Assembly (NCBI GenBank): GCA_002686355.1
Contig: NZBV01000022.1
Coordinates: forward strand, 1-32,555
From: Candidatus Pacearchaeota archaeon
GTDB lineage: Archaea; Nanobdellota; Nanobdellia; Pacearchaeales; GW2011-AR1
Direction: 5' to 3'
Length of the DNA: 32,555 nt
The notes under the pieces were generated by a model, which worked only from the letters and a program-made list of their open reading frames with translations, did no database searches and was not told the DNA's origin. Made by a program: the position numbers and the translations under genes. Shown here piece by piece: positions 1 through 31,511 of the stretch (positions within the stretch are counted from its first letter, which is position 1; the number at the start of each line of letters is the position of its first letter).

Positions 1-1143
1 GTCTGTATTTTCACAATCTTTTTGACTTCCTTGAGAAGTACAATCTTGCCATTTATTGACTCTACATGCAGCTGTTTTAAATTCATTTACTTCATCTTGA
101 ATACAAACCTCTTGTCTGAAATCAGCGCAAGACTCAACACTCACCTCGTTGTCGTAACAGACCATTCTAAAGTATCTGCTTCCTGGCAAGTTGTCTTCCA
201 CTCCTTCCTGCCTTGCACACCATGTTTCTCCGTGCTCATAATTGTCTCCTGCGTACTCACAACTTAAATCCCTACAAATATTATCTCCATAAGTTGGTTT
301 TACCTTGTTTTGCCCTTTCTTGAAAGTTTTGCAAGTGCTTCCAAGATAATAATCACAATTCCCGCAAGTTGAAGAATCTGCATTTGAAGAATCATAACCA
401 CAACTCTCAAAATTGTTCTTGACTTTTGACCAATATTCTTTGTCATCTATTTTTCCAGAATCATAAATGTTTGCCAAGTTTCCGCAAGTGTCAATAAAAA
501 AAACTTCGTCCCTGCCTTCAACACAAGTTGTTTTCTTAGATGGTCCGCAATTAGTTCCTAATGTTTCAGCAGAGCATAAATAATCCTCGTGAAAAGAAGT
601 ATCCCCTGCCATCTCATTGCACTTTGCCTTTGAAATAAACAAGCAAGTCCTCTCAAATTCTTTTTCAAAAACACACGCACCCCTTGCTTTCGAAGTCGCT
701 GAAATAATACACTGGACTTCATTTGTAATATCTGTCCGATAATTTGTTTCCAAACCATAAATCGCAGACAATCTTTTACATCTTGTCTGAGTCACAAAAG
801 CAGCCTGGTCTCCAATCAAGCAACAACCCAATTGACATTGAGGAAGATCATCAGCATCCTCGTCATACCAAACACCAGTCTCATCCTCGCAGATTTTTTG
901 AGGTGTGTTATCCATACAAGTCCCTTCTGAACTATCAATGCAAGTCCCCAGTTTACAATATGCTGTTGCCTCGCACGACGTCGGCGCTTTTCTAAAACTC
1001 GCATCACAATTTCCTTCTGGCGCATTTTGACACCATGCTCCTGATGTTGTTTTTTCACAACAATACGATGTTTCTGCAGAAACAAAATTCCCAACTAACG
1101 AGAGAAACAAAATTCCCAAAAAGATTAATAATATTTTTTTCAT
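1..1143 (-). CDS. Giant cysteine-rich secreted/membrane protein, paralog 2 (N-terminal 381 codons only; the gene runs off the left edge)
   Basis: Absent from the ORF track because no stop lies inside the window. Reading the reverse complement from ATG 1143-1141 stays open for all 381 codons to position 1: MKKILLIFLGILFLSLVGNFVSAETSYCCEKTTSGAWCQNAPEGNCD... It has an N-terminal signal peptide. Cys spacing aligns with residues ~50-400 of the 1339-aa protein at 2008-6027 (CGNCDYYLGSTC vs CGNCNYFLGSRC; GACVFEKE vs GACVFENK; RMVCYDNEVSVESCADFRQEVCIQ vs RMCIEGEIKVEQCGDYRGQICIQ). Its ATG directly abuts the TAG of the upstream gene (1144-1146). Confidence 0.85.
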   Translation of the reverse strand, partial: MKKILLIFLGILFLSLVGNFVSAETSYCCEKTTSGAWCQNAPEGNCDASFRKAPTSCEATAYCKLGTCIDSSEGTCMDNTPQKICEDETGVWYDEDADDLPQCQLGCCLIGDQAAFVTQTRCKRLSAIYGLETNYRTDITNEVQCIISATSKARGACVFEKEFERTCLFISKAKCNEMAGDTSFHEDYLCSAETLGTNCGPSKKTTCVEGRDEVFFIDTCGNLANIYDSGKIDDKEYWSKVKNNFESCGYDSSNADSSTCGNCDYYLGSTCKTFKKGQNKVKPTYGDNICRDLSCEYAGDNYEHGETWCARQEGVEDNLPGSRYFRMVCYDNEVSVESCADFRQEVCIQDEVNEFKTAACRVNKWQDCTSQGSQKDCENTD

Positions 1144-1974
1144 CTAAACAACTCCTCCACCATAACCAGGAGGCCATGCAACACTCCTAGACGCAAACTG
1201 AAATTTATTTCCATTGTTCCTGTCTGTCAAAATATAAATCGTAGTCCCATCGCCCTGCTTTTTCTTTTCAACTTTCAAGTCATGATAATAATTCATGTAA
1301 ACAGTTGTCTCAGCGTCGCCATAGTTAGTCTCCCAATCCAAGATGCTATTTGCAATACTCACTAATTCATAAAGATTATTGTTAAACACGACCTCCAGAG
1401 GTTCATATATTGCTGCATCTTCTTTTTCAAGAGTAACTGAATTATTAAATCTTACAACAACTCTTTTTGGAAGCAATTCAACTTCAAAATCAGCATCTCC
1501 TGTTTCAAATCTATAACCCCTCCCCTGATAACTTGCCTTCATGTCTTCAAAACATTGCCTTGCTTTTATATTCACATTATTCTTGATTTCACTCTTAATA
1601 TGCTCCTTCAACATCGGTTGCTGAACAACACATGTCTTATAGTACTCGTTTGTATAACATAAATATTCAATCTTTTCATCTTTATACAGGATATAATGTT
1701 CTGGCTCAATGCTTCCTCCCTGGGATGATAGAATCTCCACGCTGTCTTCAATGTCATCTTCCAAGCATGTCTGAATATACAGCGACGGATTTTCAGGCCT
1801 AACCCCTAAACTTGATTTAATATTGGGATAAAACATGAAAATCAAAATCCCAAAAACTACAATCAGTATCCCTACAATAATGAAGATAGTTGTTTGTCCT
1901 CTTTCGTTCAAATGATTGTTTTGATTTGAACGAGCGAGAGGAAAAATTTTCAATTTTTTTTCACTCTTTTTCAT
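1144..1974 (-). CDS. Prepilin-like protein with putative class III signal peptide (paralog of 6003-6776)
   Basis: 276-aa ORF. The N-terminus ...NERGQTTIFIIVGILIVVFGILIFMF has a basic leader, then G|Q, then a hydrophobic helix, as in archaeal type IV pilin-like precursors. An in-frame TTG at 1911 would give the short leader MNERG, matching MKNRG of the paralog. Four Cys and blocks such as SSQGGSIEPE / LCYTNEYYKTCVVQQPML are conserved with the 261-aa paralog. Confidence 0.75.
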   Translation of the reverse strand: MKKSEKKLKIFPLARSNQNNHLNERGQTTIFIIVGILIVVFGILIFMFYPNIKSSLGVRPENPSLYIQTCLEDDIEDSVEILSSQGGSIEPEHYILYKDEKIEYLCYTNEYYKTCVVQQPMLKEHIKSEIKNNVNIKARQCFEDMKASYQGRGYRFETGDADFEVELLPKRVVVRFNNSVTLEKEDAAIYEPLEVVFNNNLYELVSIANSILDWETNYGDAETTVYMNYYHDLKVEKKKQGDGTTIYILTDRNNGNKFQFASRSVAWPPGYGGGVV

Positions 1975-2007
1975 GTTTAGTTTATGTTATTACGATTTAT
2001 AAATATT

Positions 2008-5000
2008 TCAATCAAATGATTTAACCTCAATGCTACAGCCATTCCCTTTGTTGCCCCAGATATCCCTGCACTGGATATGATATGTTTGTCCTGAAACTTT
2101 GCTTGCACTATGTTCTTTTGAAAATGCGGTTGTCATAGGAGAAGCATTGTCAATGTCAAAATTACACTTGTTAAAATCATAATAACATTCCGCTTCTTCA
2201 TCAGTCAAAATCTTTAGTTCATTGTTCTCATAATAAACTCTTGTGACAATTGGTGCAAAAGTGTCAAGATTTAGTACAAAATCAGTATTGGCATTTGCAA
2301 TATTACCTGCATCATCTTCACATTCAATAAAAAGAGTATACCCCCCAGACATCATTGAATCAAAGGATTGCTTATGATAATGAGAATAAGTATCAAAAAA
2401 CAAATTTGAAGTTCCATTTTCTGAAAATTTATAAAAACATACCGCCTCGCCATCTTTTGCTCCTCCAGAAGTACTTGCTTCTAATTCTACAGTAATAGGT
2501 TCAAACCCTCGGTTGATTTCTCCACTTGGAGAAACAGAAACAATTTCTAACTCACTTGTTGAGCTTTTTAATGTGAAAACAAAACTTTCTGAATGGGTGT
2601 TCGCATTTCTTATCTTTTTAATTGTATTCCCAACAACTAATCCCCCTTCTTTTATGATATTGTTTGTTAGCCAAGGCATACTTGATAATTGGATGTTAGT
2701 AGACACTGAACAATTATTTCCTGCCCCCATGCACCTTTTTATTATCCCAGAGGAAGGGTTTAATACATTTATTTCTGCTACCTTTTCTTGTTTTTCAGAA
2801 TTTTTTAATCTCCAGATACCATTTATCTTTTCTGTAGGATTTTTTACTAACCAAGTTAGATTTGTTATAGAATCTGTTATTAACCATTGCTCTCCCATAT
2901 CTGAAATATTAACTTCTTCTTCATTTCCCTCAGATTTTTTCTCAATCCAATTTATCCCAGTTACTACATCATCAATTAACCAAGGCTGATCTTTACACCG
3001 AATATAAAAATTATTTTCTTTTTTGTCCAAACCTGTTAATGTTGTATGACATTTCCATCCAAAATCAGTTGTTCGCAATAAATTTGTTTCACAGGCCATG
3101 TTTGTCCCCATATATCTATAGTCCCTGTCAATTGAATCAACTCTGCACTCTGCTGGCTCGTTTAAATAAACATCAAGATTTTTCTCAGTGTCCCCAAATG
3201 GAAGATAAGAACCCTGCTTTGGGGCTGTAGCCATAATAATCGGAGGAGTTAAGTCAGGCCCTTGATTAATGCAAAAATTAACAACATATTCATTTAAATT
3301 ATAGTTGCCGTGATAATCCTGGCACCGCACATACATGTTCATGTCAGAATACATCGCACTTAAATCTCCAATTGTATTGTAAGTATTAAGACTATCAACA
3401 CTCGGAGCTGAAAAAGCAAATGTATGATTCTCTGAAAACTTGTTTTGCCCAAGAGGATATTCTTTCATATCTTCATAATTATTTGTTCTTTCAAAACTAT
3501 ATTTGCACTGTGCATGCTCATCTGTATTCAAGGAAAATAAAACAGGCTTGAATTCTGTAATGCATTCTTTTCCAACCTCTTTTATCCTAATTTTGTTAGT
3601 GCCTTCTTGAATCAATGTAAGGTTAGGAAAAATTTCTCCTGGAGAAATTACAGGCGGTGTATTGTCATTTGGAATGCTCTCACAAATAGGATTCTCTTCA
3701 TCCTCATTTAATAATATACACGCTTTCCCAAGAGATTCACACCTGTATTCAGAACAAGGCTTTAAAATATCATCGTCGCACTTTTTACAATTGTCTCCCC
3801 CCAATGGCGCTTCCCACTGCATACATTCAAACTTAACAACAACTGTTTTTGTATCTCCCCATCCAATTATTTTGAAAACTATTGCCATTACTACTACAAC
3901 AATTACAGCCCAAATAACAGGGCCTAGAAGTGGGCCTAATTTACCCACTATTCCAAATGCTGCTAGATTTGAACCTTTAAATGCTGCATATGCAGCAACC
4001 CCTCCTGCAATCCCTCCTGCAATTGATAATGCCAATGCAGCATTACCTTGAATATCAAATGCTTTTGCAGCCAAACTCCCAACCATCATACCTATTGCAA
4101 CCCCTCCTGCAGCAGCACCAACAGAGCCCAATGTTGTGGCTGCAGCACCAGACATTTTCATTCCAAGAAGAGATGCTGTTTGGGTAGTTGTAGTCATACC
4201 GCCAATAGTGGATGTTATTGTTGAAGTAGCCATAATCATGTATAACCCCCCAATCAATGCCCCCACTCCAAAAGAAATCATCCCAAGCAACTTAACACCT
4301 TTAGCAAAATCATTTTCTTCAGCTCCAGCAACACCCCCATCTCTCCCCCCACTTCCTCCACCCATCTCTTCTAAAACCTGGGCAATACTTTTTGGTTTTG
4401 CAAATTGTCCTTCAACTGGTTCTGAATATTTTTTATAATCTTGCCAATCAATTCCAGGAGCATTCTGAACTTCTGAATTTTCTGTTCCATCTCCAATATA
4501 ATTTACATAACTACCACAATCTCCCAAACCAATACACAAGTCACTCATCTGCTCTGAAAATTCACTGCTTTCACATTCACAATTCTGTTCACAATTCCAG
4601 CTCCCTTTCCAATCTTTTACATAAAGAACTTCGCATGTTTGACTTGCCATCCCGCACACATTTGGAGATTCTAGAGCTTCATCTCCTGTCAAGTAAGAAC
4701 CTTTGGGGTATTTCCCGACGCAAATATCAAATTGAAATTGGTCAGTAATCCTAATTTCTTTCCAGACACAATATTCATTTCCCTGACAAGCAGCTGCCTT
4801 GGGGTTCTCTTGCAGTGAATTATAATTGAGACATATATTTGCTTCATTAATCACACATGCAGCCATTGTGAAGTTCTTTCCTGTCCTATTGTTCCCCATT
4901 TCCGATTGAATACAAATCTGTCCTCTGTAATCCCCACACTGTTCAACTTTTATTTCTCCCTCAATACACATTCTCTTCCAGTGTCGGCTTCCAACAGTAT

Positions 5001-6003
5001 CTTTTCCGTCGCCAATAAAAGAATCGTAAACACACCAACTTTCCCCATTTACTCTTTCCCTTCCTTCAGAATCAACACAATTTAAATTTTCACAGATAAA
5101 ATCCCCATCTTTGATAGAACCCCCTGTTATTTTAAGATTTGCCAGAATATTTGTTTCAGCACACCTGCTTCCTAAAAAATAATTACAATTTCCACAATCT
5201 TGAGAATCTGCATTTGAAGAACTTGCACCACAACTGTCTTCTTTTCTCAAAACTTCCCCCTCATTCCACGACGCATCTTTGTCAGATGAATAAATATTTT
5301 CCTTATTTCCGCAACTATCAAACCAGTAAATTTCGGCTTTTCTTTCAAGGCACCCAGTTGAATTTTGTTTTTCACAAGTTGTGTCCAAACTTTTTTTAGA
5401 ACATAAACTATTTTCTGAAAAATCTCCTCCTAACCTCCCACACCCACTTTCTGTTGTAAACTTGCAAACTTTATTTTCAAAAACACACGCTCCTTGTGAC
5501 TGGACTGCTGCAAGTGCAAGACACTCATATTCTGTTTCCAAATCTCTGAAGTCTTTTTCAAACCCAAATACCAAAGAAAGCTGTTCACATCTTTTGTCGG
5601 TAACAAACTGGATTTCATCTCCTAAAACACAACATCCTTTTTGGCATTCAAAGATATTACAATTTTCATCTCCCTGCCAAACCCCCAAATCATCTTCACA
5701 TTTCCCTTTTGGAGATTTAGTAGTGCATAAGCCCTCTTTTTCATCAACACAACAACCAATTTTACAATCTACCGATGTCTCACACTTTGTCTGTTGAAGC
5801 GCCTTAGCACAATTATCATAATCAGAAAGAACATTCTGGCAAATTGCTCCGTCATTAGTTTTAGGACAGCATGAAAACGCTTGGGCAGAAACACTTGGAA
5901 TCAAATCTAATTGATTCAATTGATAACTATTTGCAAAAAGCATAGTTGCCAACAAGAAAATTTGGAATACTGCTATGAACAATAAAATATTTTTGTTTTT
6001 CAT
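2008..6003 (-). CDS. Giant (about 1330 aa) cysteine-rich surface protein with a signal peptide, Cys-rich ectodomain, glycine-zipper multi-TM core and a C-terminal beta-rich repeat ectodomain
   Basis: Uninterrupted 1339-codon ORF (track 2008-6027). The start is more likely ATG 6003-6001 (MKNKNILLFIAVFQIFLLATMLFANS, a signal-peptide-like N-terminus), which overlaps the TAA of the upstream gene as TAATG. The central segment LLGMISFGVGALIGGLYMIM...GAAAGGVAIGMMVGSLAA...LSIAGGIAGGVAAYAAF...PVIWAVIVVVVMAIVFKIIGW has about 4 hydrophobic Gly/Ala-rich helices. There are many Cys and N-x-S/T sequons on both sides of it. Confidence 0.9.
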   Translation of the reverse strand: MKNKNILLFIAVFQIFLLATMLFANSYQLNQLDLIPSVSAQAFSCCPKTNDGAICQNVLSDYDNCAKALQQTKCETSVDCKIGCCVDEKEGLCTTKSPKGKCEDDLGVWQGDENCNIFECQKGCCVLGDEIQFVTDKRCEQLSLVFGFEKDFRDLETEYECLALAAVQSQGACVFENKVCKFTTESGCGRLGGDFSENSLCSKKSLDTTCEKQNSTGCLERKAEIYWFDSCGNKENIYSSDKDASWNEGEVLRKEDSCGASSSNADSQDCGNCNYFLGSRCAETNILANLKITGGSIKDGDFICENLNCVDSEGRERVNGESWCVYDSFIGDGKDTVGSRHWKRMCIEGEIKVEQCGDYRGQICIQSEMGNNRTGKNFTMAACVINEANICLNYNSLQENPKAAACQGNEYCVWKEIRITDQFQFDICVGKYPKGSYLTGDEALESPNVCGMASQTCEVLYVKDWKGSWNCEQNCECESSEFSEQMSDLCIGLGDCGSYVNYIGDGTENSEVQNAPGIDWQDYKKYSEPVEGQFAKPKSIAQVLEEMGGGSGGRDGGVAGAEENDFAKGVKLLGMISFGVGALIGGLYMIMATSTITSTIGGMTTTTQTASLLGMKMSGAAATTLGSVGAAAGGVAIGMMVGSLAAKAFDIQGNAALALSIAGGIAGGVAAYAAFKGSNLAAFGIVGKLGPLLGPVIWAVIVVVVMAIVFKIIGWGDTKTVVVKFECMQWEAPLGGDNCKKCDDDILKPCSEYRCESLGKACILLNEDEENPICESIPNDNTPPVISPGEIFPNLTLIQEGTNKIRIKEVGKECITEFKPVLFSLNTDEHAQCKYSFERTNNYEDMKEYPLGQNKFSENHTFAFSAPSVDSLNTYNTIGDLSAMYSDMNMYVRCQDYHGNYNLNEYVVNFCINQGPDLTPPIIMATAPKQGSYLPFGDTEKNLDVYLNEPAECRVDSIDRDYRYMGTNMACETNLLRTTDFGWKCHTTLTGLDKKENNFYIRCKDQPWLIDDVVTGINWIEKKSEGNEEEVNISDMGEQWLITDSITNLTWLVKNPTEKINGIWRLKNSEKQEKVAEINVLNPSSGIIKRCMGAGNNCSVSTNIQLSSMPWLTNNIIKEGGLVVGNTIKKIRNANTHSESFVFTLKSSTSELEIVSVSPSGEINRGFEPITVELEASTSGGAKDGEAVCFYKFSENGTSNLFFDTYSHYHKQSFDSMMSGGYTLFIECEDDAGNIANANTDFVLNLDTFAPIVTRVYYENNELKILTDEEAECYYDFNKCNFDIDNASPMTTAFSKEHSASKVSGQTYHIQCRDIWGNKGNGCSIEVKSFD

Positions 6004-6776
6004 TACATACCAGCTGGCATCACACACCCCCTTACAGCGAATCTAAAACTCTCTCCACTTTTTCTGTGTTTTAATGTATAGATTGTTTTTGAGTCTCCGG
6101 TTTTAAACTTGTCAAGTTCAAATTCGGGATTAAGCAACATAAGACCCATTTGTTCAAAATGACAATATTTTGCTTCCTGGCTGACAATTTCTTGTGCAAC
6201 AACAGCCAGATTATAAAACATCGTCGGAATCCTGACTTCAAAATTTTTTTGTTTAGAAGTTTCTCCTGTTTTTGTAAGAATAATCTTTCCGTAAATATTC
6301 ACCAATATTTTTTTTGGAATCAATTCAATTCCAAATCCTTCATAAGAGGAATTAACAACATAATCTTGTTTTTCTAAATTTGACATTAAATCATCAAAAC
6401 AATTTTCAACATCTTCTAAAATATAGTTTTTTATTTCATCTTTTAGATGCCGAATTAACATTGGCTCTTGGTTCACGCAGGGAATGTAATTATTTTCAGT
6501 ATAGCAAAGATATGAAATGTTTTGATGTTTCTCCTTTTCAAATTTAAATCCAAAACTAAATTCTGGTTCAATATACCCCCCTTGAGGAGACATAATTGCA
6601 ATGGCTTCTTTTACTTTTCCCGCAATGCAAGATTCAAAAAATATGTTTGGATTTGTTTCTTTCCCAAAATCTAATTGGGGAATTAATTTCCCCCTGTAAA
6701 AGAATAATAGTACGATAATCACAATTAGGATTACTCCTGCAATTATAAATATGTTCATCTGTCCTCGATTTTTCAT
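6003..6776 (-). CDS. Prepilin-like protein with putative class III signal peptide (paralog of 1144-1974)
   Basis: ORF track 6003-6788. The start is more likely ATG 6776-6774, giving MKNRG|QMNIFIIAGVILIVIIVLLFF, and it overlaps the TGA of the upstream wHTH gene as ATGA. It is homologous along its length to the 276-aa protein (SPQGGYIEPE, LCYTENNYIPCVNQEPML, F.F..R motifs). Confidence 0.8.
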   Translation of the reverse strand: MKNRGQMNIFIIAGVILIVIIVLLFFYRGKLIPQLDFGKETNPNIFFESCIAGKVKEAIAIMSPQGGYIEPEFSFGFKFEKEKHQNISYLCYTENNYIPCVNQEPMLIRHLKDEIKNYILEDVENCFDDLMSNLEKQDYVVNSSYEGFGIELIPKKILVNIYGKIILTKTGETSKQKNFEVRIPTMFYNLAVVAQEIVSQEAKYCHFEQMGLMLLNPEFELDKFKTGDSKTIYTLKHRKSGESFRFAVRGCVMPAGM

Positions 6777-6958
6777 TTTAATACCCATAAATTAACACCT
6801 TGTTTTTTAATTTTTTGAACCTTACCATCCACGACTAATTCAAGAAGATGCTTATCAGCAGTATTCCATGAAACCTTAAGATGCTTCGCAATTTCCGAGC
6901 TAGTTACAACCTTTTCTTTTTTCAGAAGCCGTAATATCTTTTTACTATGAGATTTCAT
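6773..6958 (-). CDS. Small winged-helix (wHTH) DNA-binding protein, putative transcription regulator
   Basis: The track ORF 6773-7042 would overlap PCNA. The internal ATG at 6958 gives the 61-aa product MKSHSKKILRLLKKEKVVTSSEIAKHLKVSWNTADKHLLELVVDGKVQKIKKQGVNLWVLK. This matches the H1-H2-H3-wing pattern of small archaeal wHTH proteins. The stop overlaps the next start (ATGA). Confidence 0.65.
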   Translation of the reverse strand: MKSHSKKILRLLKKEKVVTSSEIAKHLKVSWNTADKHLLELVVDGKVQKIKKQGVNLWVLK

Positions 6959-6992
6959 AATAATATTCCTATTAGTACTATAAGGAAGATAC

Positions 6993-7001
6993 ATATATAA
7001 A
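6993..7001 (-). promoter_or_regulatory. Candidate TATA box (TTTATATAT on the minus strand) for the wHTH and surface-module operon
   Basis: An AT-rich TATA-like octamer/nonamer lies 34 nt upstream of ATG 6958, just downstream of the PCNA stop (7008). Confidence 0.35.
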
Positions 7002-7007
7002 TGTTTT

Positions 7008-7733
7008 CTAATCTTCAGTTTCAACTCTCGGAGCAAGAACAAAACTTAATTCCATCCCCTCTGTCCTGAAATCCATTCGTAGAGGATGCTCATTCGCAAA
7101 ATTCATGACAACTCTATCTGCTATTTTTGCACCTTTAATGAATTTTGACAAATATTCTAGGCTATACCTTGCCTTACAATCTTCAGCATTTATCTCTGCC
7201 TCATCTCCTGAGAATTCAGAACGTGCAGAATTAATTCCCTTTGCTTCAATTATGAATTTTCCTTCTTCGATGATAAAAGAACATGCATCAGCCACAACAG
7301 TACAATCCTCAATTGAATCGACTAAATCACTTGAATTCATCTCCACTTTTGAACTAAAATCAAGGTTTGGAAGTTCCTTGTCCTCGCTGCTAATCTCAAT
7401 CAAGTTCAGTTTGAATGTTCTCTTTATCCGGTCATAAATCTGAATGTTCAATAAATTCTCTTGTTTCTCTAAAATAATTGAACTTTTTGTCCCGCTTCTT
7501 TTTAAAATCTTCTTCAAATCATCTAGATTAACCCCCAAAACTTCATCACTGGTTTCAAATTGAGAGAATGCTCTTTTTGGAAGACGAAATCCAACCATCG
7601 TAACATTCGCGGGATCAATCGCAACAATGCTCATCCCCGAATCATTAATCTTTATCCTAACTTCTGTCACAAGCTCGGCTAAAATATCAATCACCTTTGA
7701 TAACTGCGCAGGATTTTCAAGTTTAACCAACAT
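7008..7733 (-). CDS. pcn: DNA polymerase sliding clamp (PCNA)
   Basis: The 241-aa product has typical archaeal PCNA length and sequence pattern (MLVKLENPAQLSKVIDILAELVTEVRIKINDSGMSIVAIDPANV...LEYLSKFIKGAKIADRVVMNFANEHPLRMDF...FVLAPRVE). Confidence 0.95.
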   Translation of the reverse strand: MLVKLENPAQLSKVIDILAELVTEVRIKINDSGMSIVAIDPANVTMVGFRLPKRAFSQFETSDEVLGVNLDDLKKILKRSGTKSSIILEKQENLLNIQIYDRIKRTFKLNLIEISSEDKELPNLDFSSKVEMNSSDLVDSIEDCTVVADACSFIIEEGKFIIEAKGINSARSEFSGDEAEINAEDCKARYSLEYLSKFIKGAKIADRVVMNFANEHPLRMDFRTEGMELSFVLAPRVETED

Positions 7734-7972: not shown

Positions 7973-9505
7973 ATGCCAGAAAATTCCCCCTCAATCAAAG
8001 AACAACGAATTAGAAAAATCACGCATTTGTATTACTCGCGAAAAGACGTGCAAAAAGCAATGTTTGAGTTTTCACAAAATCGGGAAATTTCGCCACAATA
8101 TTTCGAAGGTTTTGGAAAAAGACCAGATTCTTTTCAATACCCAAATGACATTTTTGAACTTGTAAAAAAAGGAGCAACTTCATTCCATTGTTCAGAAGAA
8201 TTATGGGACAACCCTCTAAACATAATAACAGGCATGACAGAAGAACAAGCAAATGAATTGCGAATCGGCTGGGACTTGCTAATAGATGTTGATTGCAAGT
8301 GGTTTGATTACAGCAAACTCGCAGCACAGGCAATAATAAAAGTCCTTGAAAATCATCAGATAAAAAACATAGGAATAAAATTTTCTGGCTCAAAAGGATG
8401 GCACATTTTAATCCCATGGAAATCTTTTCCAAAAGAAATTGGTAATGAGCAAACTAAAGACTTGTTCCCAGAACTGCCAAGGAAAATTGTAGATTACATT
8501 CGATTTAAAACAGAAGAAGAACTCACGAAAAATCTCCCGGCGGATTTTGAAGAACAGTTTAAGAATGTTAAAATAAAAAAAGGAATAAAATGTAACCAGT
8601 GCAAGGAGATTGCAAATGAATTTATTCTTACAGATTTTTTTTGCGAGGATTGCGGAATTGGTGAGCACAGAAAACTCGCGCCAGAAGACAAGACAGAATT
8701 CAAATGCCCAAACTGTAGACAAAATTTCGAGGTAAAAAATTCAATAGATATTTACGAATGCAACAGATGTAACATCGACTCGGGAAAAAACCAGAACAAT
8801 TTTTCCCAAACAATCGAGACAGATATTTTCGAAGTTATGGGTCTTGACTTGCTTCTTGTCTCTCCCCGTCACTTATTCCGGATGCCCTATTCTCTTCATG
8901 AAAAAACAGCATTGGCAAGCATGGTCTTGAACAAAGACGAGGTTTTAGATTTTGAACTAAAAGATGCAGACTCTATGAGCATTCAGATAAAAAATTTCAT
9001 GCCAGATTCAGAAGAAGGAGAAGCAAAAGAACTTGTTATGCAGGCAGTGGATTGGGATAGGGAAAATAAAATTTTTCGCGGTGAGTCAGAAGAAAAAGTC
9101 ACAGGCAAATACGCAGAATTCAAGCCAATAAAACTTGATAGAATTTTAGAAGAAAACTTTCCCCCTTGCGTAAAAAGAATATTAAACGGACTTGCTGATG
9201 GAAGAAAAAGAACTTTGTTTGTCCTGATAAATTTATTTCGTTCTGTTGGAATGGACAAGGAAGAACTTGAAAAAAAAATCAACGAGTGGAACACAAAAAA
9301 CGAGGTTCCTCTAAAAAAAGGTTATATCATCTCCCAACTTTTATGGAGTTATAAACGAAAACCAATTATGCCTCAAAACTGCAGAACTTTTTACCAGGAT
9401 ATCGGCATTTGCACCCCTGATGAATTTTGTCCGAAAATAAAAAATCCAGTGAATTATGTTGTGAGGAAGAGTTTTGTTGGAAAGAAAAAAGAGAGAAGGA
9501 AATGA
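7973..9505 (+). CDS. Archaeo-eukaryotic primase with the catalytic PriS-like domain fused to a PriL-CTD-like Fe-S domain
   Basis: AEP motifs are DLLIDVD (motif I), SGSKGWHILIP (motif II) and FRMPYSLHEKT (motif III). The insert has four CxxC pairs (CNQC, CEDC, CPNC, CNRC). The C-terminal region FPPCVKRILNGLADGRKRTLFVLINLF...NCRTFYQDIGICTPDEFC resembles the 4-Cys PriL C-terminal domain. Confidence 0.85.
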   Translation: MPENSPSIKEQRIRKITHLYYSRKDVQKAMFEFSQNREISPQYFEGFGKRPDSFQYPNDIFELVKKGATSFHCSEELWDNPLNIITGMTEEQANELRIGWDLLIDVDCKWFDYSKLAAQAIIKVLENHQIKNIGIKFSGSKGWHILIPWKSFPKEIGNEQTKDLFPELPRKIVDYIRFKTEEELTKNLPADFEEQFKNVKIKKGIKCNQCKEIANEFILTDFFCEDCGIGEHRKLAPEDKTEFKCPNCRQNFEVKNSIDIYECNRCNIDSGKNQNNFSQTIETDIFEVMGLDLLLVSPRHLFRMPYSLHEKTALASMVLNKDEVLDFELKDADSMSIQIKNFMPDSEEGEAKELVMQAVDWDRENKIFRGESEEKVTGKYAEFKPIKLDRILEENFPPCVKRILNGLADGRKRTLFVLINLFRSVGMDKEELEKKINEWNTKNEVPLKKGYIISQLLWSYKRKPIMPQNCRTFYQDIGICTPDEFCPKIKNPVNYVVRKSFVGKKKERRK

Positions 9506-9833: not shown

Positions 9834-11651
9834 ATGAAAAGAGGAGCGGTATTTGGCTTATTATTTATTTTGTTAGTTACATCTTTTGCTTTTGCAGAAA
9901 ACAATGAAACAAATACAACAGAAGAAACAACAACCTCAGACGATACTTCTTCAGAAGACCTTTCTCAGATTGACAAAGCCTACAAGTGTCTTGAAGACAA
10001 GGTAAAGGACGAATGTTCAACTTCGCTTGTTGATAATATTTTCACCCTGCTTGCAATTAAAGAATGTGGCGGAAAAGTTAAAGATAAATCAAACAATGAC
10101 AAATGCTGGCCAGAAAATGATTGTGATATAAAGATAACTGCTCAGGCAATGTTGGCACTTGACAAGGCGGGCTACTCAACTTCAAAAGCAAAAGATTGGC
10201 TGCTCGATCAAAACAACACGCCTGATGACCTCTATTGGTATCTTGAAATAGAAAGCTCTAAAGAGACAATATGCACAATTGAATATGATTCAAGAGATTA
10301 CATAGTAAACATTGGGACAGACAAAAAAATAAGTTCTTCTGCAGGAGGTTGTCTTAGTTTGTCTAGCGGAGATTACTGGCTGAGAATTTCCCCCTCTTGT
10401 TATGATAAGGAGTTTAAAGTCTCCTGCGACGAATCTTTTTTAACGACATTACTATTCAAGAAACAGACCTCTCCTACAATCCATGTTTCAGAGGATACCT
10501 CTTCTGCTTCTGCAGAGGGCACGACAAAAGAACAAGTCCTCTCCCTTTGTTTCACAGAAGGTAACACCTGTGATTATGAAGGAAGCTTGTGGGCTACACT
10601 GGTTTTAGACACCCTCGGTTATGATGTTTCTGCATTCATTCCTTATCTGATTACAATGGCTGATGAAAATGGAAAATTCCTTCCAGAAGCATTTTTGTAT
10701 GCACTGACTGACTATACTGACTTCAGGTCTGATTTATTATTAAAGCAAAAAGTAAAATACTGGGATGAATCAGGAGACAAGTTCTCTGATACTGCGCTTG
10801 CGCTTTACCCTTTTATCTACGAGGACTTAACAGAAAAAGACAATTCAAAAGAATGGTTGCTGGAGATTCAAGATGATGATGGTTGCTGGGATAGTGGAAG
10901 GATAAAGAGCACTGCTTTTGTCTTGGCTTCAATCTGGCCAAGAGGGGGTTATACATCTGATTCAGGAAGAACAACAGGAGGCGATTGCGAGAATTCTGGT
11001 TATTATTGTATGTCGGGTATAGAGTGCAAAGGAAATATTCTCAAAGATTATGAATGCTCAGGTGTTGCAAAATGCTGTGACCAGCCTACTACTCTAGAAT
11101 TATGCGAAGACCAAGGAGGACAAATATGTGCTTCAAATAAACTTTGCTCAGGGGGAACAACAATTAGTTCTGCTGATGCAACTGAAGGAGCTACTTGTTG
11201 TATTGGTGGAAGATGTCAGGAACCGGAAGTAACAATAGACGACTGTGAGTCTTATGGAGGAGTATGTAGGCTTTCTGATTGTGAAGGAGATGAAGAAAAA
11301 TCAGTCACTTATTCCTGTGATTATGAAGACACTTGTTGTCTAAAAAAAAGCGATGAAGGAAGTTTGTGGTGGATTTGGTTATTACTGATTTTAACAATTC
11401 TCGCGGTTGTTGCAATAGTCTTTAGAGCCCGTTTGGGATTTTATTATAAAAAGATAAAATCAAGATTTGGAAAAGGAAAAGGTCCAAAAGCCCCTCCTTC
11501 AGCATTCCCTCCAGGCCCAAGAGGTCCAGTAGGACCAAGAAGAATTCTGCCTCCATCATCTCGCAGATATCCTGTAAGGAGAAGACCTCCTGCAAAAAGA
11601 TCAGGAGAAATCGACGAAGTTCTTAAGAAGCTGAAAGATATGGGAAAATAG
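9834..11651 (+). CDS. Type I membrane surface protein with an alpha/alpha-toroid (prenyltransferase/terpene-cyclase-like) repeat ectodomain, three Cys-rich stalk modules, a TM helix and a Pro/Arg-rich cytoplasmic tail
   Basis: Signal peptide MKRGAVFGLLFILLVTSFAFA. Repeat signatures are ITAQAMLALDKAGYS..AKDWLLDQ, GSLWATLVLDTLGYD and EWLLEIQDDDGCWDSGRIKSTAFVLASIWP. Three C..C..C..CC modules follow. TM helix LWWIWLLLILTILAVVAIVF. Tail GPKAPPSAFPPGPRGPVGPRRILPPSSRRYPVRRRPPAKR. Confidence 0.8.
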   Translation: MKRGAVFGLLFILLVTSFAFAENNETNTTEETTTSDDTSSEDLSQIDKAYKCLEDKVKDECSTSLVDNIFTLLAIKECGGKVKDKSNNDKCWPENDCDIKITAQAMLALDKAGYSTSKAKDWLLDQNNTPDDLYWYLEIESSKETICTIEYDSRDYIVNIGTDKKISSSAGGCLSLSSGDYWLRISPSCYDKEFKVSCDESFLTTLLFKKQTSPTIHVSEDTSSASAEGTTKEQVLSLCFTEGNTCDYEGSLWATLVLDTLGYDVSAFIPYLITMADENGKFLPEAFLYALTDYTDFRSDLLLKQKVKYWDESGDKFSDTALALYPFIYEDLTEKDNSKEWLLEIQDDDGCWDSGRIKSTAFVLASIWPRGGYTSDSGRTTGGDCENSGYYCMSGIECKGNILKDYECSGVAKCCDQPTTLELCEDQGGQICASNKLCSGGTTISSADATEGATCCIGGRCQEPEVTIDDCESYGGVCRLSDCEGDEEKSVTYSCDYEDTCCLKKSDEGSLWWIWLLLILTILAVVAIVFRARLGFYYKKIKSRFGKGKGPKAPPSAFPPGPRGPVGPRRILPPSSRRYPVRRRPPAKRSGEIDEVLKKLKDMGK

Positions 11652-11939: not shown

Positions 11940-12971
11940 ATGAAACAATTAATAATATTCTCAATTTTTCTTTTTCTATTCCCTGTTGTTTCTTCAATTG
12001 AATTCACAATGAATCAAGAATTCCAGAAAGGAGAAACATTAATAGCAAAAGTTTCAGGCAACTTTATGGAGCCTATTCTTAAGGAAAATATTGGGTTTTT
12101 TAGGGGGCATGTTCGTGTGGCCATTGAGCCATTTGTGGCAAAAATCAATGAAGAATTTTACATTTATGCACACTTGCCAGAAAATTCAGATAATTATTCA
12201 ATTGTCATAACTGGAGTTAAATATTTTAAAGGAAGTAAGATTAGTGACACAAACCTGACAGAAGATTTCACAATCACAAATCAGACAGCGCAATTTTCAG
12301 TTGACAAAGGGTTTGTTGTTTCAGATGATGATTTCTATCTTGAAGTTCAAAACCTCCAGGATTTTGCAATAACGATTAATGTTGGTCAACAAACAATTTT
12401 AGGAGACACAGACGATTTTAGAGTAACAAATCCAGGAATATTAAAATCAGGAGATATTGAAAAAATAAATTTCGCAATTGGCGAATTAACAGAACCCACT
12501 TTGAAAACAATGGCTTTAACTTCAGGAGAATTTAGTTATGAGATTCTTGTGGATATATACGGGATAAGCAGAGAGGCAAAAGAAGTTGCAATGGAAGGCA
12601 AGGATTTCATTGACTTGGATGAACAAGAGAAAGAAATAATTGTTGTTGAGGAGGAATATGTCCCGACAACAACTGCTACCTGCGGAGAACTTAATGGAAC
12701 AATCTGTACTGAAGACCAAGAGTGCGATGAAGAAGTAGAATATACACCAGAGAAGGATAAGACGACTGGTAAGTGCTGTTTAGGAACCTGCACAGAAAAA
12801 CCAGAATCTTCAACAGGAGCAATAATCGGTTGGGGACTTGTGATTGTAATCATCGGATTTTTAATCTGGTTTTTAAAATTCAGATATCGGCCTGCAAAAA
12901 GAGAAATTAACCTGCTTGACATTGGCAAAGGCAAAAAACTAGAATCAAAAAAAGGCAGTACAAAATCATGA
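11940..12971 (+). CDS. Type I membrane surface protein with one Cys-rich juxtamembrane stalk module
   Basis: Signal peptide MKQLIIFSIFLFLFPVVSS, then a beta-rich ectodomain. The module TCGELNGTICTEDQECDEE...GKCCLGTCTEKPE matches the modules of the 605-aa protein. TM helix IIGWGLVIVIIGFLIWFL, followed by a short basic tail. Confidence 0.8.
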   Translation: MKQLIIFSIFLFLFPVVSSIEFTMNQEFQKGETLIAKVSGNFMEPILKENIGFFRGHVRVAIEPFVAKINEEFYIYAHLPENSDNYSIVITGVKYFKGSKISDTNLTEDFTITNQTAQFSVDKGFVVSDDDFYLEVQNLQDFAITINVGQQTILGDTDDFRVTNPGILKSGDIEKINFAIGELTEPTLKTMALTSGEFSYEILVDIYGISREAKEVAMEGKDFIDLDEQEKEIIVVEEEYVPTTTATCGELNGTICTEDQECDEEVEYTPEKDKTTGKCCLGTCTEKPESSTGAIIGWGLVIVIIGFLIWFLKFRYRPAKREINLLDIGKGKKLESKKGSTKS

Positions 12972-22356: not shown

Positions 22357-22815
22357 TTAATTTTTTAAATTATTCGTTAACCATGAATTAACAATTTTTA
22401 AACACATCTTTTGGTTTGACCATTTTAATTTTTTCAGGGCATCAGAAAAACTAACCCACTTGTAATCAGAATGTTCTTCTTTGCTCAATCGGATTTTTGA
22501 CATCTTAACTTCAACAGCATAAAGTTTATAACTCTGTCCAACAAAGCCTTTTTTGTCAGAGTATTTTTTATCATACTCATATTTCCCCTGTTTATTAAAT
22601 TTCTTTATCTCTAAAATTTTCAAACCTGTTTCTTCCTTAATCTCCCTCCCGATAGCCATTCTTTCTGTTTCATAAAATCTCCTTCCCCCCTTAGGAAATT
22701 CCCATCCTTTCCAGTGCAATTTTCTTTTTAGAATCGAGTACCTAACTCCTTGTTCAGTCTTTGCATATATCACAATAAAAAGCGCACGACGGTATTTCAT
22801 CTTAACACCATTCAT
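22357..22815 (-). CDS. Nudix hydrolase (Ap4A-hydrolase/Nudt2-like pattern)
   Basis: The Nudix box is GWEFPKGGRRFYETERMAIGREIKEETGL. The downstream YKLYAVEVKMSKIRLSKEEHSDYKWVSF resembles the YWLAEVK...LS.EH..Y.W segment of asymmetric Ap4A hydrolases. An alternative start lies at 22800. The long form overlaps the rbcL 3' end by 14 nt. Confidence 0.85.
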   Translation of the reverse strand: MNGVKMKYRRALFIVIYAKTEQGVRYSILKRKLHWKGWEFPKGGRRFYETERMAIGREIKEETGLKILEIKKFNKQGKYEYDKKYSDKKGFVGQSYKLYAVEVKMSKIRLSKEEHSDYKWVSFSDALKKLKWSNQKMCLKIVNSWLTNNLKN

Positions 22816-24058
22816 TTAATGCTTCTTCTAACTCAACATGTGTCCTTGCATACTCTTTCAAACTCTTTTTTTTCAACACAGCATCAACGGCTTGCCTCAT
22901 TGCAATTGCTCCTGCCTGTGTTCCAAACGGATGTCCGTGAATCCCTCCTCCTGCCTGAATAACTAAATCTTTTCCCAAATGTTTGATCAAGAAAGGGACG
23001 TGGCCGGGATGAAGCCCGCCCGACGACACAGGCATAACTGGTTTGATATTTCTCCAGTCTTGCGTTAACATCTTTTCTGTTTTCTTAACTTTCATTCTTG
23101 AGATATCTTCCTTGATTTCTCTTATGTCTTTTATTTTCCCTTCGAGTTTTCCAATGCCTGTTCCAATATGAATCTGGTCAACACCAATTAATCTCGCAAA
23201 GTCTGCAATAACTTTCATGCTCATTCCATGCTCGGGATTTCTGTCAAAAGCCGCATGCATTGCCCGATGCGCGTGAATTGCAAGTTTAAAATTAGCCTCA
23301 CGAAGAGTCTGAATAGCAGCCCAGCCAGAAGTTAGAATATCAACCATTATATATTTGCTCCCCATTTTCTCAGCCAGTTGTGCGCGTTTTAACATCTCTT
23401 TTGTCTCAGCAGTAGCATTAACCAAATAAACTTTTTTTTCTCCTGTTTCTTTCTCAGTTTTGTCGGCCATTTCCAAAGTCTTGGCTAATCTCTTTTCAAA
23501 AACATTAAATTTTTGCGATGCTAAATTTTCGTCATCTTTTACAATGTCACAACCCCCTTTCCATGATTCATAAGCAGACTCAGCATGATGCTTTGGGTTC
23601 AGCCCAAGTTTTGGTTTGATGATTGTACCAATAAACGGACGGTTCTTAACTTTCAACAGTCTTCTGACACCTTTAATTCCATACCTCGGGCCTTTGAATT
23701 TTCCCAAAATCTTTGTAGGAAAACTAATGTCTTCAAGTCTTATTGATTTAACAGCTTTCATACCAAAAATATTTCCGGCAATTGACGACAAGATATTTGG
23801 GATATTATCTTTTTCAAAAAGTTCCGAGGGATAGGCAATTTTTATCCAGCCATTTCTCTTTATTGAAAAAACTTTTGCTTTCAGTTTTTCAACATAATCC
23901 CTCTCTTTTATTTTTGTCCATGTTCCAACACTTGATTCAAGTGCAACAGTGTTTGCAGCTTTTTCAAGAGAAATGCGATTAGGAACAATTTTAAACAAAC
24001 AAACCAAATCATCCCGCGGTTTGTATTTTAAGTTTATGAAATCAAGCCTCTTTTTCAT
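22802..24058 (-). CDS. rbcL: Ribulose-1,5-bisphosphate carboxylase large subunit, form III (archaeal type)
   Basis: The 418-aa product has the catalytic motifs GTIIKPKLGL, GGCDIVKDDENL (carbamylated Lys plus metal ligands), IHAHRAMHAA, SSGGLHPG and GGGIHGHP. No small-subunit gene lies nearby. Confidence 0.95.
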   Translation of the reverse strand: MKKRLDFINLKYKPRDDLVCLFKIVPNRISLEKAANTVALESSVGTWTKIKERDYVEKLKAKVFSIKRNGWIKIAYPSELFEKDNIPNILSSIAGNIFGMKAVKSIRLEDISFPTKILGKFKGPRYGIKGVRRLLKVKNRPFIGTIIKPKLGLNPKHHAESAYESWKGGCDIVKDDENLASQKFNVFEKRLAKTLEMADKTEKETGEKKVYLVNATAETKEMLKRAQLAEKMGSKYIMVDILTSGWAAIQTLREANFKLAIHAHRAMHAAFDRNPEHGMSMKVIADFARLIGVDQIHIGTGIGKLEGKIKDIREIKEDISRMKVKKTEKMLTQDWRNIKPVMPVSSGGLHPGHVPFLIKHLGKDLVIQAGGGIHGHPFGTQAGAIAMRQAVDAVLKKKSLKEYARTHVELEEALNEWC

Positions 24059-26081: not shown

Positions 26082-26639
26082 TTATTCACTCTTAATCGTA
26101 ACATAAACATCAATGCTAGAACCATAAAGTTGGGTTCCTTTTTCCATGTTTATTGAGTAAACTATTTTACAGGGAGGAGTTGTTTCAGGGATATCAAATT
26201 TAACAAAAATAGGATCATCCATGATACTTCCTGCAGGAATGACAATGTTGTTCCTTTTTTTGTTAAGGGCAATAAGATCCTCTGCTTTTGCTAATTGTAT
26301 GTTACAATTCGTTTCCTCTGCAGTTATATCATAAGAAAATTTGCCATCTTCATTTCCAACATTCCTAACTGACAGACCAAAACCTCTGTTCTCCTCCCCT
26401 TTTTTTATTTCAACTTCCCTTGTAGGAGGATAAATCACAATTTTTTTATTTTCATTTTCTGAGAATAATTTTTCTATCTCAGATTTTACCGCAGTATCAA
26501 TGCCTTCTATATTTTCAACAGAACTTTTGAAAATTGTTCGAATTAGAATCAGGCCCAAAACTAGAACAGTCATAAGAAGAACTATCGTAACAATTGTTCC
26601 CACACTCATCTCCATTGCTGCATGCTTGTTTTTTGCCAT
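26082..26639 (-). CDS. N-terminally anchored extracellular protein, possibly another class III signal peptide protein
   Basis: The 185-aa product starts MAKNKHAAMEMSVGTIVTIVLLMTVLVLGLILI, a short basic leader followed by a long hydrophobic helix, and continues into a beta-rich domain with 2 Cys. Confidence 0.55.
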   Translation of the reverse strand: MAKNKHAAMEMSVGTIVTIVLLMTVLVLGLILIRTIFKSSVENIEGIDTAVKSEIEKLFSENENKKIVIYPPTREVEIKKGEENRGFGLSVRNVGNEDGKFSYDITAEETNCNIQLAKAEDLIALNKKRNNIVIPAGSIMDDPIFVKFDIPETTPPCKIVYSINMEKGTQLYGSSIDVYVTIKSE

Positions 26640-26640
26640 C

Positions 26641-26937
26641 TTATCGAATTGGAAAATTTCCTAAATTGATTCCTTTTGTCGCGAAATAGTAAGTTATTGC
26701 TATTGACAAAATAAAGAAGATTATGCTTAGGATTATCCCAATCTTGCTTAACCTTTTTGCTTTTTTTGATAATGCATTCTCCTGTTTTCCACATTGGATG
26801 ATACCGATTATCCCAAAGACAATTCCCATAATTGGCTGAAAAAATGCCATAACAATGCTTATTATTCCAAAGACATAACCAATCATTCCAGAATCTTTTT
26901 TTACTCCTTCTCCCCCGCTTTTTTTATCCATATTCAA
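26641..26937 (-). CDS. Small membrane protein (2-3 TM helices)
   Basis: The 98-aa product has the hydrophobic segments IGYVFGIISIVMAFFQPIMGIVFGIIGII and IGIILSIIFFILSIAITYYFA. The stop lies 1 nt before the next gene's start. Confidence 0.6.
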   Translation of the reverse strand: MNMDKKSGGEGVKKDSGMIGYVFGIISIVMAFFQPIMGIVFGIIGIIQCGKQENALSKKAKRLSKIGIILSIIFFILSIAITYYFATKGINLGNFPIR

Positions 26938-31217: not shown

Positions 31218-31511
31218 TTAGAACCTTTTTTGGTTGAAATCCCTTCGTGGTCTTGGTCTGTCTGTTGAATCCATTGGCTTTGCTTCATTCACTTTCAATG
31301 GTCTGCCTTCTACATCTTTTCCATCCATTTCAGCAATTGCTTTTTTTGCACTTTCATCATCTTTGAAAGTTACAAATCCAAATCCCTTTGAACGACCAGA
31401 ATACTTATCTGAAATCACACTGGCTTCTTCAATCTCTCCAAAAGGTGCGAAAAGTTCCTTTAGATTTTCAAATCCAACACTAAAAGGTAGATTACCTACA
31501 TAAATTTTCAT
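31218..31511 (-). CDS. RRM (RNP-type) RNA-binding protein
   Basis: RNP-2 is KIYVGNL and RNP-1 is KGFGFVTF. The product is 97 aa with a short basic tail, the same architecture as bacterial/cyanobacterial Rbp proteins. Confidence 0.9.
   Translation of the reverse strand: MKIYVGNLPFSVGFENLKELFAPFGEIEEASVISDKYSGRSKGFGFVTFKDDESAKKAIAEMDGKDVEGRPLKVNEAKPMDSTDRPRPRRDFNQKRF

Follow-up and report, generated by a model that had tools for sequence, protein, structure and literature searches.

A conserved, probable cell-envelope operon of pilin-like small proteins and giant cysteine-rich proteins in Pacearchaeota and Woesearchaeota

The stretch analysed here (the window) comprises 32,555 nucleotides of contig NZBV01000022.1, from a Candidatus Pacearchaeota archaeon (assembly GCA_002686355.1). 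At its beginning, on the minus strand, lies a gene cluster in which a small protein with a pilin-like N-terminus is paired, twice in tandem, with a very large Cys-rich protein. This cluster belongs to an operon of about 10 kb that is ancient and vertically inherited among DPANN archaea of the Pacearchaeota/Woesearchaeota type and probably serves the cell envelope. A preliminary description had claimed a winged helix-turn-helix (wHTH) gene, a pair of genes for 257 and 276 amino acids (aa), a giant gene and an open reading frame (ORF) at the window edge, and all of these were confirmed from the sequence:

6773-6958, minus strand: wHTH gene, 61 aa, whose stop codon overlaps the start of small1 (ATGA)
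6003-6776, minus strand: small1, 257 aa, predicted to be bitopic, with a class III-type N-terminus, a probably extracytoplasmic alpha/beta domain and six conserved Cys
2008-6003, minus strand: giant1, 1331 aa
1144-1974, minus strand: small2, 276 aa, paralog of small1 with four conserved Cys
1-1143, minus strand: giant2_N, first 381 of 484 aa, a predicted secreted Cys-rich head paralogous to the giant1 head, its ORF cut by the window edge

The genes are tightly packed, with the coordinates first reported. The wHTH/small1 junction is ATGA (6773-6776), the small1/giant1 junction is TAATG (6001-6005), and between small2 and giant2_N a TAG is followed directly by ATG (1141-1146); giant1 and small2 are separated by a spacer of 33 nt (1975-2007). 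The proposed paralogy of both pairs also holds, with 33% identity between small1 and small2 (E 9e-50) and 37% identity between the 381-aa giant2_N stretch and the first 400 residues of giant1 (E 3e-72).

Both families are large. In a collection of 5.8 billion proteins the giants have at least 597 homologs, of which the full-length ones listed are typically 1150-1400 aa long and none carries a Pfam domain; the organism names given are Nanoarchaeota, Pacearchaeota or 'archaeon', and all listed homologs apart from two are called 'hypothetical'. These two (P0056 and P0115) stand in public records as 'GRP family sugar transporter' and 'cytochrome c oxidase subunit IV', names that are almost certainly annotation artefacts, caused perhaps by the Gly/Ala-rich membrane region described below. 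For the small proteins, a word-indexed search gave 128 homologs, and in an exhaustive profile search the clusters at 50% identity numbered 566 for E<=1e-30 and 2155 for E<=1e-10. A scan with one genome per species found 112 small-protein relatives, from which 79 loci were kept. Except for one short contig labelled Iainarchaeum, these loci are named Pacearchaeota, Woesearchaeota, Nanoarchaeota, Nanoarchaeia or 'archaeon', and the closest genome is a Pacearchaeota metagenome-assembled genome with a small1 that is 68% identical. No published description of the operon was found in the literature.

To compare gene order, ORFs were called in all loci and labelled by BLASTP against the window proteins. 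The order PCNA-[wHTH]-small1-giant1-small2-giant2N-giant2C is kept in the 79 genome loci as far as the contigs extend, and the adjacency of small and giant genes, first seen in this single window, is conserved in every one of these loci whose contig extends beyond the small gene. Families of this size with such synteny place the operon far beyond what chance would give. The tight coupling of stop and start codons is likewise a feature of the relatives, with 66 of 81 small1-giant1 junctions falling within 14 nt and 50 of the 81 between -4 and +1 nt. Such translational coupling of the small and the giant protein suggests a 1:1 complex. Six loci (L025, L033, L054, L057, L067 and L081) hold a third small-plus-giant module, which is always of type 1.

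The second module had been described as a second pair of prepilin-like protein and giant. Its giant does have a head paralogous to that of giant1, but it is not a single giant here. Another contig of the same organism (L084) encodes exactly the small2 protein and a giant2_N stretch identical residue for residue; on this contig giant2_N ends after 484 aa, and a membrane/stalk gene starts 3 nt later (L084 10832-13459). The product of this gene has its own signal or anchor, a long linker, Gly-rich helices and a conserved 'CxPWQAPTGG...C' knot. Module 2 of this organism is thus composed of three genes, not two. The second giant is split in the same manner in at least 34 loci, into a head gene of about 480-650 aa and a membrane/stalk gene of about 630-1000 aa, and fused in 2; in giant1 head and stalk are fused. 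Their occurrence on one chain or on two speaks for head and stalk as partners. Identical proteins were found on contigs of marine (Tara Oceans) assemblies.

The ortholog groups of small1 and small2, and of the giant1 and giant2 heads, keep their order in all loci mapped, and the tandem duplication is therefore ancient, older than the radiation of Pacearchaeota and Woesearchaeota. The first description of the modules as duplicated and diverging, which suggested a recent event, is thus not upheld. Rates of change differ between the modules. Median identities relative to the window proteins, over 47 loci, are as follows:

PCNA: 66%
primase: 63%
small2: 57%
giant2 head: 56%
small1: 47%
giant1 stalk: 44%
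giant1 head: 40%

Module 2 is nearly as conserved as the replication proteins, and module 1 is both the faster module and the one that has been re-duplicated.

In relatives whose contigs extend further, the operon continues. Four more small genes, of about 160, 310, 176 and 160 aa, follow module 2, and their products have N-termini of the form [KR]G(Q/F/Y) plus a hydrophobic stretch; none has a Pfam match. A pilin-like gene stands directly after module 2 in 14 of the 19 loci with enough downstream sequence. Two loci show the set together with the genes behind it:

L002, 18184-20652, and L004, 16904-19315: four downstream pilin-like genes, then a divergent HTH gene of the HVO_A0114 family and an S-layer (S_layer_C) gene

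The N-terminus of small1 reads MKNRG and continues with QMNIFIIAGVILIVIIVLLFF, the Gln at +1 being followed by a hydrophobic helix of 22 residues; that of small2 has NERG followed by QTTIFIIVGILIVVFGILIF. Both show the class III-type pattern, and the two proteins are the sole matches to a FlaFind-like pattern among the window proteins. In small2, a TTG lies five codons before the Gly-Gln and is a possible start that would give a short leader of the usual length. In an alignment of 68 small-protein sequences the N-terminal consensus is K-x-G-Q-V-T-I-F-I-I, with the Gln at least 90% conserved. Among orthologs taken from the genomes (80 of small1 and 56 of small2), [KR]-[GAS]-Q plus a hydrophobic helix is nearly invariant, and the consensus K-[KR]-G-Q-V-T-I-F-I-I is kept in both families, so the [KR]-G-Q motif read from the window alone is a family feature. 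Gln at +1 is a feature of EppA-processed Methanococcus pilins, and was reportedly noted in these by Szabo et al. in 2007. Judged from this motif, the N-termini of the small proteins may be processed by a peptidase.

Four Cys of small1 (C50, C91, C100 and C126) are common to small2, as the preliminary description had it, and small1 has C205 and C251 in addition. In the 68 sequences the latter two are both present in 62, both absent in 6, and never found singly. Joint presence and absence of this kind is a disulfide signature, and the domain is therefore likely to be extracytoplasmic. The AlphaFold2 model of the small protein (pLDDT 91, pTM 0.80) has a membrane helix at residues 4-29, a low-confidence linker at 30-39, and an alpha/beta domain built of three units of a helix and a sheet of 2-3 strands. 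Comparison of the alignment with PDB sequence profiles gave nothing below E 0.2. The small proteins thus have a pilin-like N-terminus and a body that is not a recognisable pilin. Going by the pattern of secondary structure alone, we would guess at a relation to the 'double PepSY-like' DPANN family of Makarova et al.

The layout of giant1 was taken from hydropathy and Cys mapping, from an alignment of 95 sequences, and from an AlphaFold2 model, all of which agree. Giant1 itself was too long for modelling, so the fold comes from a homolog of 1200 aa that is 63% identical to it (P0003, pLDDT 81). The parts are:

5884-6003, minus strand: signal sequence, with hydrophobic residues 6-24 and a conserved V-S-A at 38-40
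4369-5883, minus strand: Cys-rich head, about residues 41-545, with 45 conserved Cys and three GCC-type repeats at residues 45, 84 and 124
3838-4368, minus strand: Gly/Ala-rich membrane region, about residues 546-722, with about four predicted hydrophobic helices, GxxxG-type motifs, 17% Gly and 17% Ala
2011-3837, minus strand: C-terminal part, with a membrane-proximal 7-Cys knot, then about four Ig-like (immunoglobulin-like) beta-sandwich domains, and 21 conserved Cys
2620-2958, minus strand: insertion of 113 aa (residues 1016-1128) between Ig-like domains, holding the only two non-conserved Cys of giant1

Directly before the first CC motif the family consensus reads '...IGxVSA', and signal cleavage is probably at this site. 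The head, of about 500 residues, was modelled in the homolog with high confidence. The membrane region (about 180-215 residues) is the least conserved part of the giant; its helices in the model, at 549-562, 598-620, 626-649 and 665-688, have low confidence, and counting of spans by hydropathy across the giant family was too noisy for use. After the 7-Cys knot, the all-beta C-terminal half has 14 more conserved Cys. Foldseek searches of the model against PDB and BFVD had as top matches only tandem Ig, FN3, cadherin or adhesin chains, with E down to 2e-12 and confined to the C-terminal half; these generic Ig/FN3 matches of the whole giant hide any match to the head. Consistent with the Ig-like fold, the Pfam family Big_13 scores 28.4 bits (cut-off 27) in the giant2_C of a paralog from locus L002; giant1 itself reaches only 14.2 bits and misses the cut-off.

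Of the 68 Cys in giant1, 66 recur in at least 85% of the 95 homologs. Along the 113-aa insertion, at least 85% of the other 94 homologs show gaps, the closest one among them; the insertion is private to the giant1 of this organism. Both head and C-terminal part are Cys-rich, and the head follows a signal sequence; therefore head and stalk would both face outward, and the membrane region would cross the membrane an even number of times. Conserved Cys counts are odd in each, 45 or 43 in the head and 21 in the stalk, a hint compatible with one disulfide between head and stalk, also where the two are separate chains, or with a free reactive Cys in each.

Neither the small nor the giant proteins have a family match in Pfam or NCBIfam. 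For the head, none was found in Pfam with 44 paralogous heads, and a sequence-profile search of PDB gave no relative (nothing below E 0.2). The statement that the pair maps to no characterised family thus stands, since Pfam, NCBIfam, PDB profiles and Foldseek yield only generic Ig-like domains in the C-terminal half of the giant; the head domain and the globular domain of the small protein are without known relatives. A weak match of 19 of the 44 head paralogs to CoV_NSP4_N (best E 3e-4) covers a short Cys-rich stretch and was treated as chance. A multihaem or metal-cluster protein was also considered and rejected, as the CxxCH motif is absent and giant1 has only two CxxC motifs.

Transcription of the operon may start at either of two elements with the look of a TATA box:

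6994-7001, minus strand: TTTATATA, TATA-box-like, in the 49-nt spacer between the PCNA stop and the wHTH start, about 40 nt upstream of the ATG at 6958-6956
about 1997-2004, minus strand: TTTATAAA, inside the 33-nt spacer between the modules, its centre 26 nt upstream of the small2 ATG

By its sequence and position TTTATATA is a candidate promoter. The spacing of TTTATAAA is as expected for the TATA box of a leaderless transcript, and module 2 may therefore have its own promoter. In Pfam the wHTH protein exceeds the cut-offs of HTH_11 (27.5 bits against 25) and HTH_24 (24.2 bits against 21.9). It had been called the dedicated regulator of the operon, a claim that is unsupported or overstated, as only 15 of 65 loci have a wHTH gene between PCNA and small1; in the others small1 comes directly after PCNA, in most of these loci within about 100 nt of its stop codon. 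Because the small1 start lies less than 100 nt from the PCNA stop in many loci, the replication gene PCNA and the surface operon may be co-transcribed.

The flank of the operon in the window contains the following genes:

7008-7733, minus strand: PCNA gene, stop codon at 7008-7010, upstream of the wHTH gene
7973-9505, plus strand: primase gene, divergent to PCNA
9834-11651, plus strand: ORF of 605 aa with a Sec signal and without Pfam match
11940-12971, plus strand: ORF of 343 aa with a Sec signal and without Pfam match

This flank belongs to the conserved arrangement. PCNA, the divergent primase and the two Sec-signal proteins accompany the operon in most of the 79 genomes, and in the loci mapped the strand opposite to the operon carries primase and genes for two secreted proteins, one of about 430 and one of about 610 aa. 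Otherwise the window encodes archaeal housekeeping functions, namely primase, two aminoacyl-tRNA synthetases, L31e, S19e, a TruB-family pseudouridine synthase (Cbf5-like) and form III RuBisCO. The RuBisCO gene (418 aa) overlaps a NUDIX hydrolase gene (22357-24058, minus strand), a pair in keeping with the scavenging of nucleotides described in Pacearchaeota (PMC8204110). At 26082-26937 on the minus strand, two small membrane proteins of 185 and 98 aa are encoded side by side. The first starts with MAKNKHAAMEMSVGTIVTIVLLM, has a hydrophobic N-terminal helix and no family match, and looks vaguely pilin-like although it fails the FlaFind-like pattern; its 98-aa neighbour has a weak DUF4190-like match. 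A protein of 97 aa (31218-31511, minus strand) has a strong match to RRM_1 (E 7e-25), a domain type that is uncommon in archaea.

We suggest that the operon encodes a membrane-anchored, disulfide-stabilised surface complex, which would form a fixed surface spike or attachment structure through the envelope, and we hold this reading with about even confidence. In each module, a small bitopic protein with a class III-type N-terminus (Gln at +1) would pair with a giant. The giant would begin with a Sec signal and a Cys-rich head of a new kind, pass through the membrane in one or two hairpins of Gly/Ala-rich helices, and carry a stalk of about four Ig domains. Head and stalk would be directed outward, carried on one chain in module 1 and on two in module 2 of this organism, and the four downstream pilin-like proteins of relatives are probably part of the same assembly. 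Module 2 would be the conserved core of this assembly, and module 1 its faster-evolving, sometimes re-duplicated, outward-facing unit. An extracytoplasmic location is argued for by the signal sequences, the 66 conserved Cys of giant1, the pairing of C205 and C251, and the adhesin-type run of Ig-like domains. As background, the >2.5 um filter fraction was enriched in Pacearchaeota, an observation read as a sign of strong attachment to hosts (He et al. preprint, 10.1101/2020.05.14.094862), and a membrane-bound or extracellular location is predicted for many of the families specific to DPANN lineages (PMC8204110).

Several observations weigh against this reading. Curated models for pilins and class III signals (such as Pfam Class_IIIsignal, archaeal Pilin_N and TIGR arch_flag_Nterm) give no match at E<=1 for small1 or small2 in Pfam and NCBIfam. 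Nor is the pilin fold expected of the small protein recognisable in its model, for which Foldseek found no fold match in PDB (best E 4e-3, TM below 0.2, and no pilin among the matches). Number and topology of the membrane spans in the giants rest on hydropathy and low-confidence AlphaFold2 helices. The giants are well conserved (40-60% identity, 66 Cys), which is uncommon among adhesins with a specific host and suits a housekeeping role in the envelope equally well or better. Within 10 kb, none of the fetched loci has a gene for a prepilin peptidase, a secretion ATPase or a platform protein, and according to the preprint of He et al. (10.1101/2020.05.14.094862) DPANN genomes lack the components of type IV pili.

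The search for pilus machinery was made at several levels. The window holds none, including candidates for an A24-family peptidase (PibD/FlaK/EppA); 83 loci hold neither an ORF with a FlaI-type Walker A motif nor a polytopic GxGD protein; and no secretion ATPase (FlaI/PilB) or platform protein (FlaJ/TadC) is present in the Pfam-annotated neighbourhoods of L001-L004 and L084-L087. The preliminary description had asked whether a prepilin peptidase exists elsewhere in the genome; the search covered the window and the locus neighbourhoods, up to 10 kb on each side, and found none there. A second preprint reports type IV filament systems in some DPANN and Nanoarchaeota, with an Epd-like 'system 1' of many pilins and accessory proteins (preprint 10.64898/2026.04.22.720090). 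A relation to the MoxR/vWA/DUF4350 'putative novel secretion system' (Makarova et al. 2015, PMC5898192) was rejected, since arCOG01314, the MoxR ATPase and vWA are absent from the window and the annotated neighbourhoods; nor could any component in common be demonstrated with the dark-matter families of DPANN that Makarova et al. list.

The main rival is a housekeeping envelope scaffold, in which the proteins would be a constitutive part of the wall, such as an anchor or spacer that fixes the distance of the S-layer from the membrane, with no direct role in host contact. We regard this as possible but less likely than the attachment complex. The operon is nearly universal and its conservation is near that of housekeeping genes, above all in module 2 (medians of 56-57%, with primase and PCNA at 63-66%), the Cys framework hardly varies, the position beside PCNA and primase is fixed, and an S_layer_C gene follows the operon in L002 and L004. 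In Sulfolobus, SlaB is a stalk-type S-layer anchor, and the combination of an Ig-like stalk with a membrane anchor resembles such anchors. However, the S-layer family models (S_layer_C, S_layer_N) have no match in the giants, whether in Pfam, in NCBIfam or with the 44 head paralogs. Moreover, the faster change of module 1, its re-duplication and its private 113-aa insertion suit an exposed, ligand-facing part, and a scaffold would leave six pilin-type N-termini unexplained. Thus, conservation and the S-layer neighbour favour the scaffold, whereas the pilin-type N-termini and the behaviour of module 1 favour the attachment complex.

Alternatively, the genes may be the accessory set of a true type IV filament, with six minor pilins and a machine encoded elsewhere, forming a pilus or short pseudopilus with the giants at its base or tip; its closest parallels would be the minor pilins with PilY1 in Pseudomonas and the Epd cluster of Methanococcus. 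Six adjacent genes with N-termini of the [KR]G-Q type would be accounted for in this way, 'system 1' (Epd-like) has been reported in DPANN (preprint 10.64898/2026.04.22.720090), and archaeal pilus loci often have at least five minor pilins together with large adhesins (PMC4858521). We nevertheless consider a filament unlikely: the ATPase, platform and peptidase are absent from the fetched loci, which reach at most 10 kb to either side, giant1 has membrane helices of its own and cannot ride on a filament, a low-confidence linker separates the helix of the small protein from a globular domain without pilin-like match, and no candidate for a major pilin is evident.

The opposite explanation removes pilin biology altogether. 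The small proteins would then be plain signal-anchored proteins, and their Gly-Gln a structural feature at the membrane interface rather than a cleavage site. The failure of pilin and class III models to match, the lack of a peptidase nearby and the statement that DPANN lack type IV pilus components (10.1101/2020.05.14.094862) all agree with this. However, the pattern of a basic residue, a small residue, Gln and a hydrophobic helix recurs in six families and more than 100 sequences, which is hard to explain for simple anchors, and makes this account improbable in our judgement.

A bolder extension of the attachment complex would be a lineage-defining, envelope-spanning machine, in which a six-subunit pseudopilus-like stem and two giants, with disulfide-locked head, Ig stalk and Gly-zipper pore, together make an organelle for host contact and transfer. 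This would be a new class of apparatus, with main parts unrelated to known pili, secretion systems or fusogens; as a whole it is speculative and quite improbable. A related proposal is a conduit or fusion machine, where Gly-zipper helices of several giants would form a pore that, with a pseudopilus, bridges to a host for uptake of lipid, nucleotides or DNA. Pseudopilus and channel together are the logic of bacterial competence systems, and (G/A/S)xxxGxxx(G/A/S) motifs are present in 46 of the 46 membrane regions examined. The minimal metabolism of Pacearchaeota, for which most building blocks must be imported (10.1101/2020.05.14.094862; PMC8204110), also speaks for such a bridge. Yet there is no homology to channel, fusogen or competence proteins, the membrane region is the least conserved part with a low-confidence model, and GxxxG is common in ordinary helix packing; the 'channel' role that was first listed among the options has no direct support, and we think a conduit very unlikely. 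Cargo of an integrated virus or mobile element, suggested by the fold similarity of large Ig-domain proteins to phage tail and fibre proteins, has a negligible probability given zero small-protein relatives in 2.9 million viral contigs, a position between housekeeping genes fixed in 79 genomes, a GC content of the operon (0.359) matching the rest of the window (0.347), and no integrase or capsid genes in the window.

Pacearchaeota and Woesearchaeota are among the most widespread uncultured archaea, with minimal metabolism, and are thought to live attached to hosts; we know of no molecule that mediates this contact. The operon is a concrete candidate for a surface structure, and the small protein and the head domain can serve as markers for finding or imaging it. 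If peptidase processing is true, the Sulfolobus bindosome would be joined by a further archaeal example of class III signals on probably non-filament proteins, in a lineage said by some authors to lack pilus systems. If the proteins are instead an ordinary envelope scaffold, they would still be a core and unannotated component of the DPANN cell wall.

Among known systems, the phyletic pattern of the operon is that of module 98 of Castelle et al. 2021 (PMC8204110), which comprises 51 families common to Pacearchaeota and Woesearchaeota, mostly absent elsewhere and mostly without predicted function; the present families may belong to this module, and the paper does not describe the operon. The nearest described systems are archaeal type IV filament loci, such as Epd/'system 1' of Methanococcus maripaludis and Thermoproteales clades 4B/4E (Makarova et al. 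2016, PMC4858521), which often hold several minor pilins and large Cys-rich adhesin-like or S-layer-like proteins. Like these, the operon has adjacent class III-type N-termini (here with Gln at +1), large Cys-rich Ig-like proteins and an S-layer gene nearby. Unlike them, it has no ATPase, platform, peptidase or recognisable major pilin, its small proteins match no pilin model, and its giant is anchored by internal Gly/Ala-rich helices of its own and bears a head without known relative.

Tandem Ig-like adhesins of bacteria and eukaryotes (the ice-binding adhesin 4P99, the GhpA grappling hook 9FLW, cadherins) resemble the C-terminal half of giant1, which is likewise a row of beta-sandwich domains (Foldseek E 2e-12 to 1e-7); with 8-12% identity this similarity is generic, and it extends over the stalk only, whereas head, membrane region and small partner are not covered. 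The fimU-pilVWXY1E operon of Pseudomonas aeruginosa combines minor pilins with PilY1, an adhesin of about 1160 aa. PilY1 has a vWA domain and a beta-propeller and no membrane helices, and the giants are not known to have either of these domains or any sequence or fold similarity to it. In gene content the two operons are alike, each co-encoding four to six small pilin-like proteins with adhesin-like proteins of >1000 aa that carry a Sec signal. Finally, the bindosome of Sulfolobus is made of sugar-binding proteins with PibD-processed class III signal peptides, which are solute binders of ABC transporters, and has a dedicated Bas assembly system. Although nothing like ABC solute-binding proteins or the Bas system occurs here, the bindosome shows by example that class III signal peptides can be borne by surface proteins which remain close to the membrane and form no filaments.

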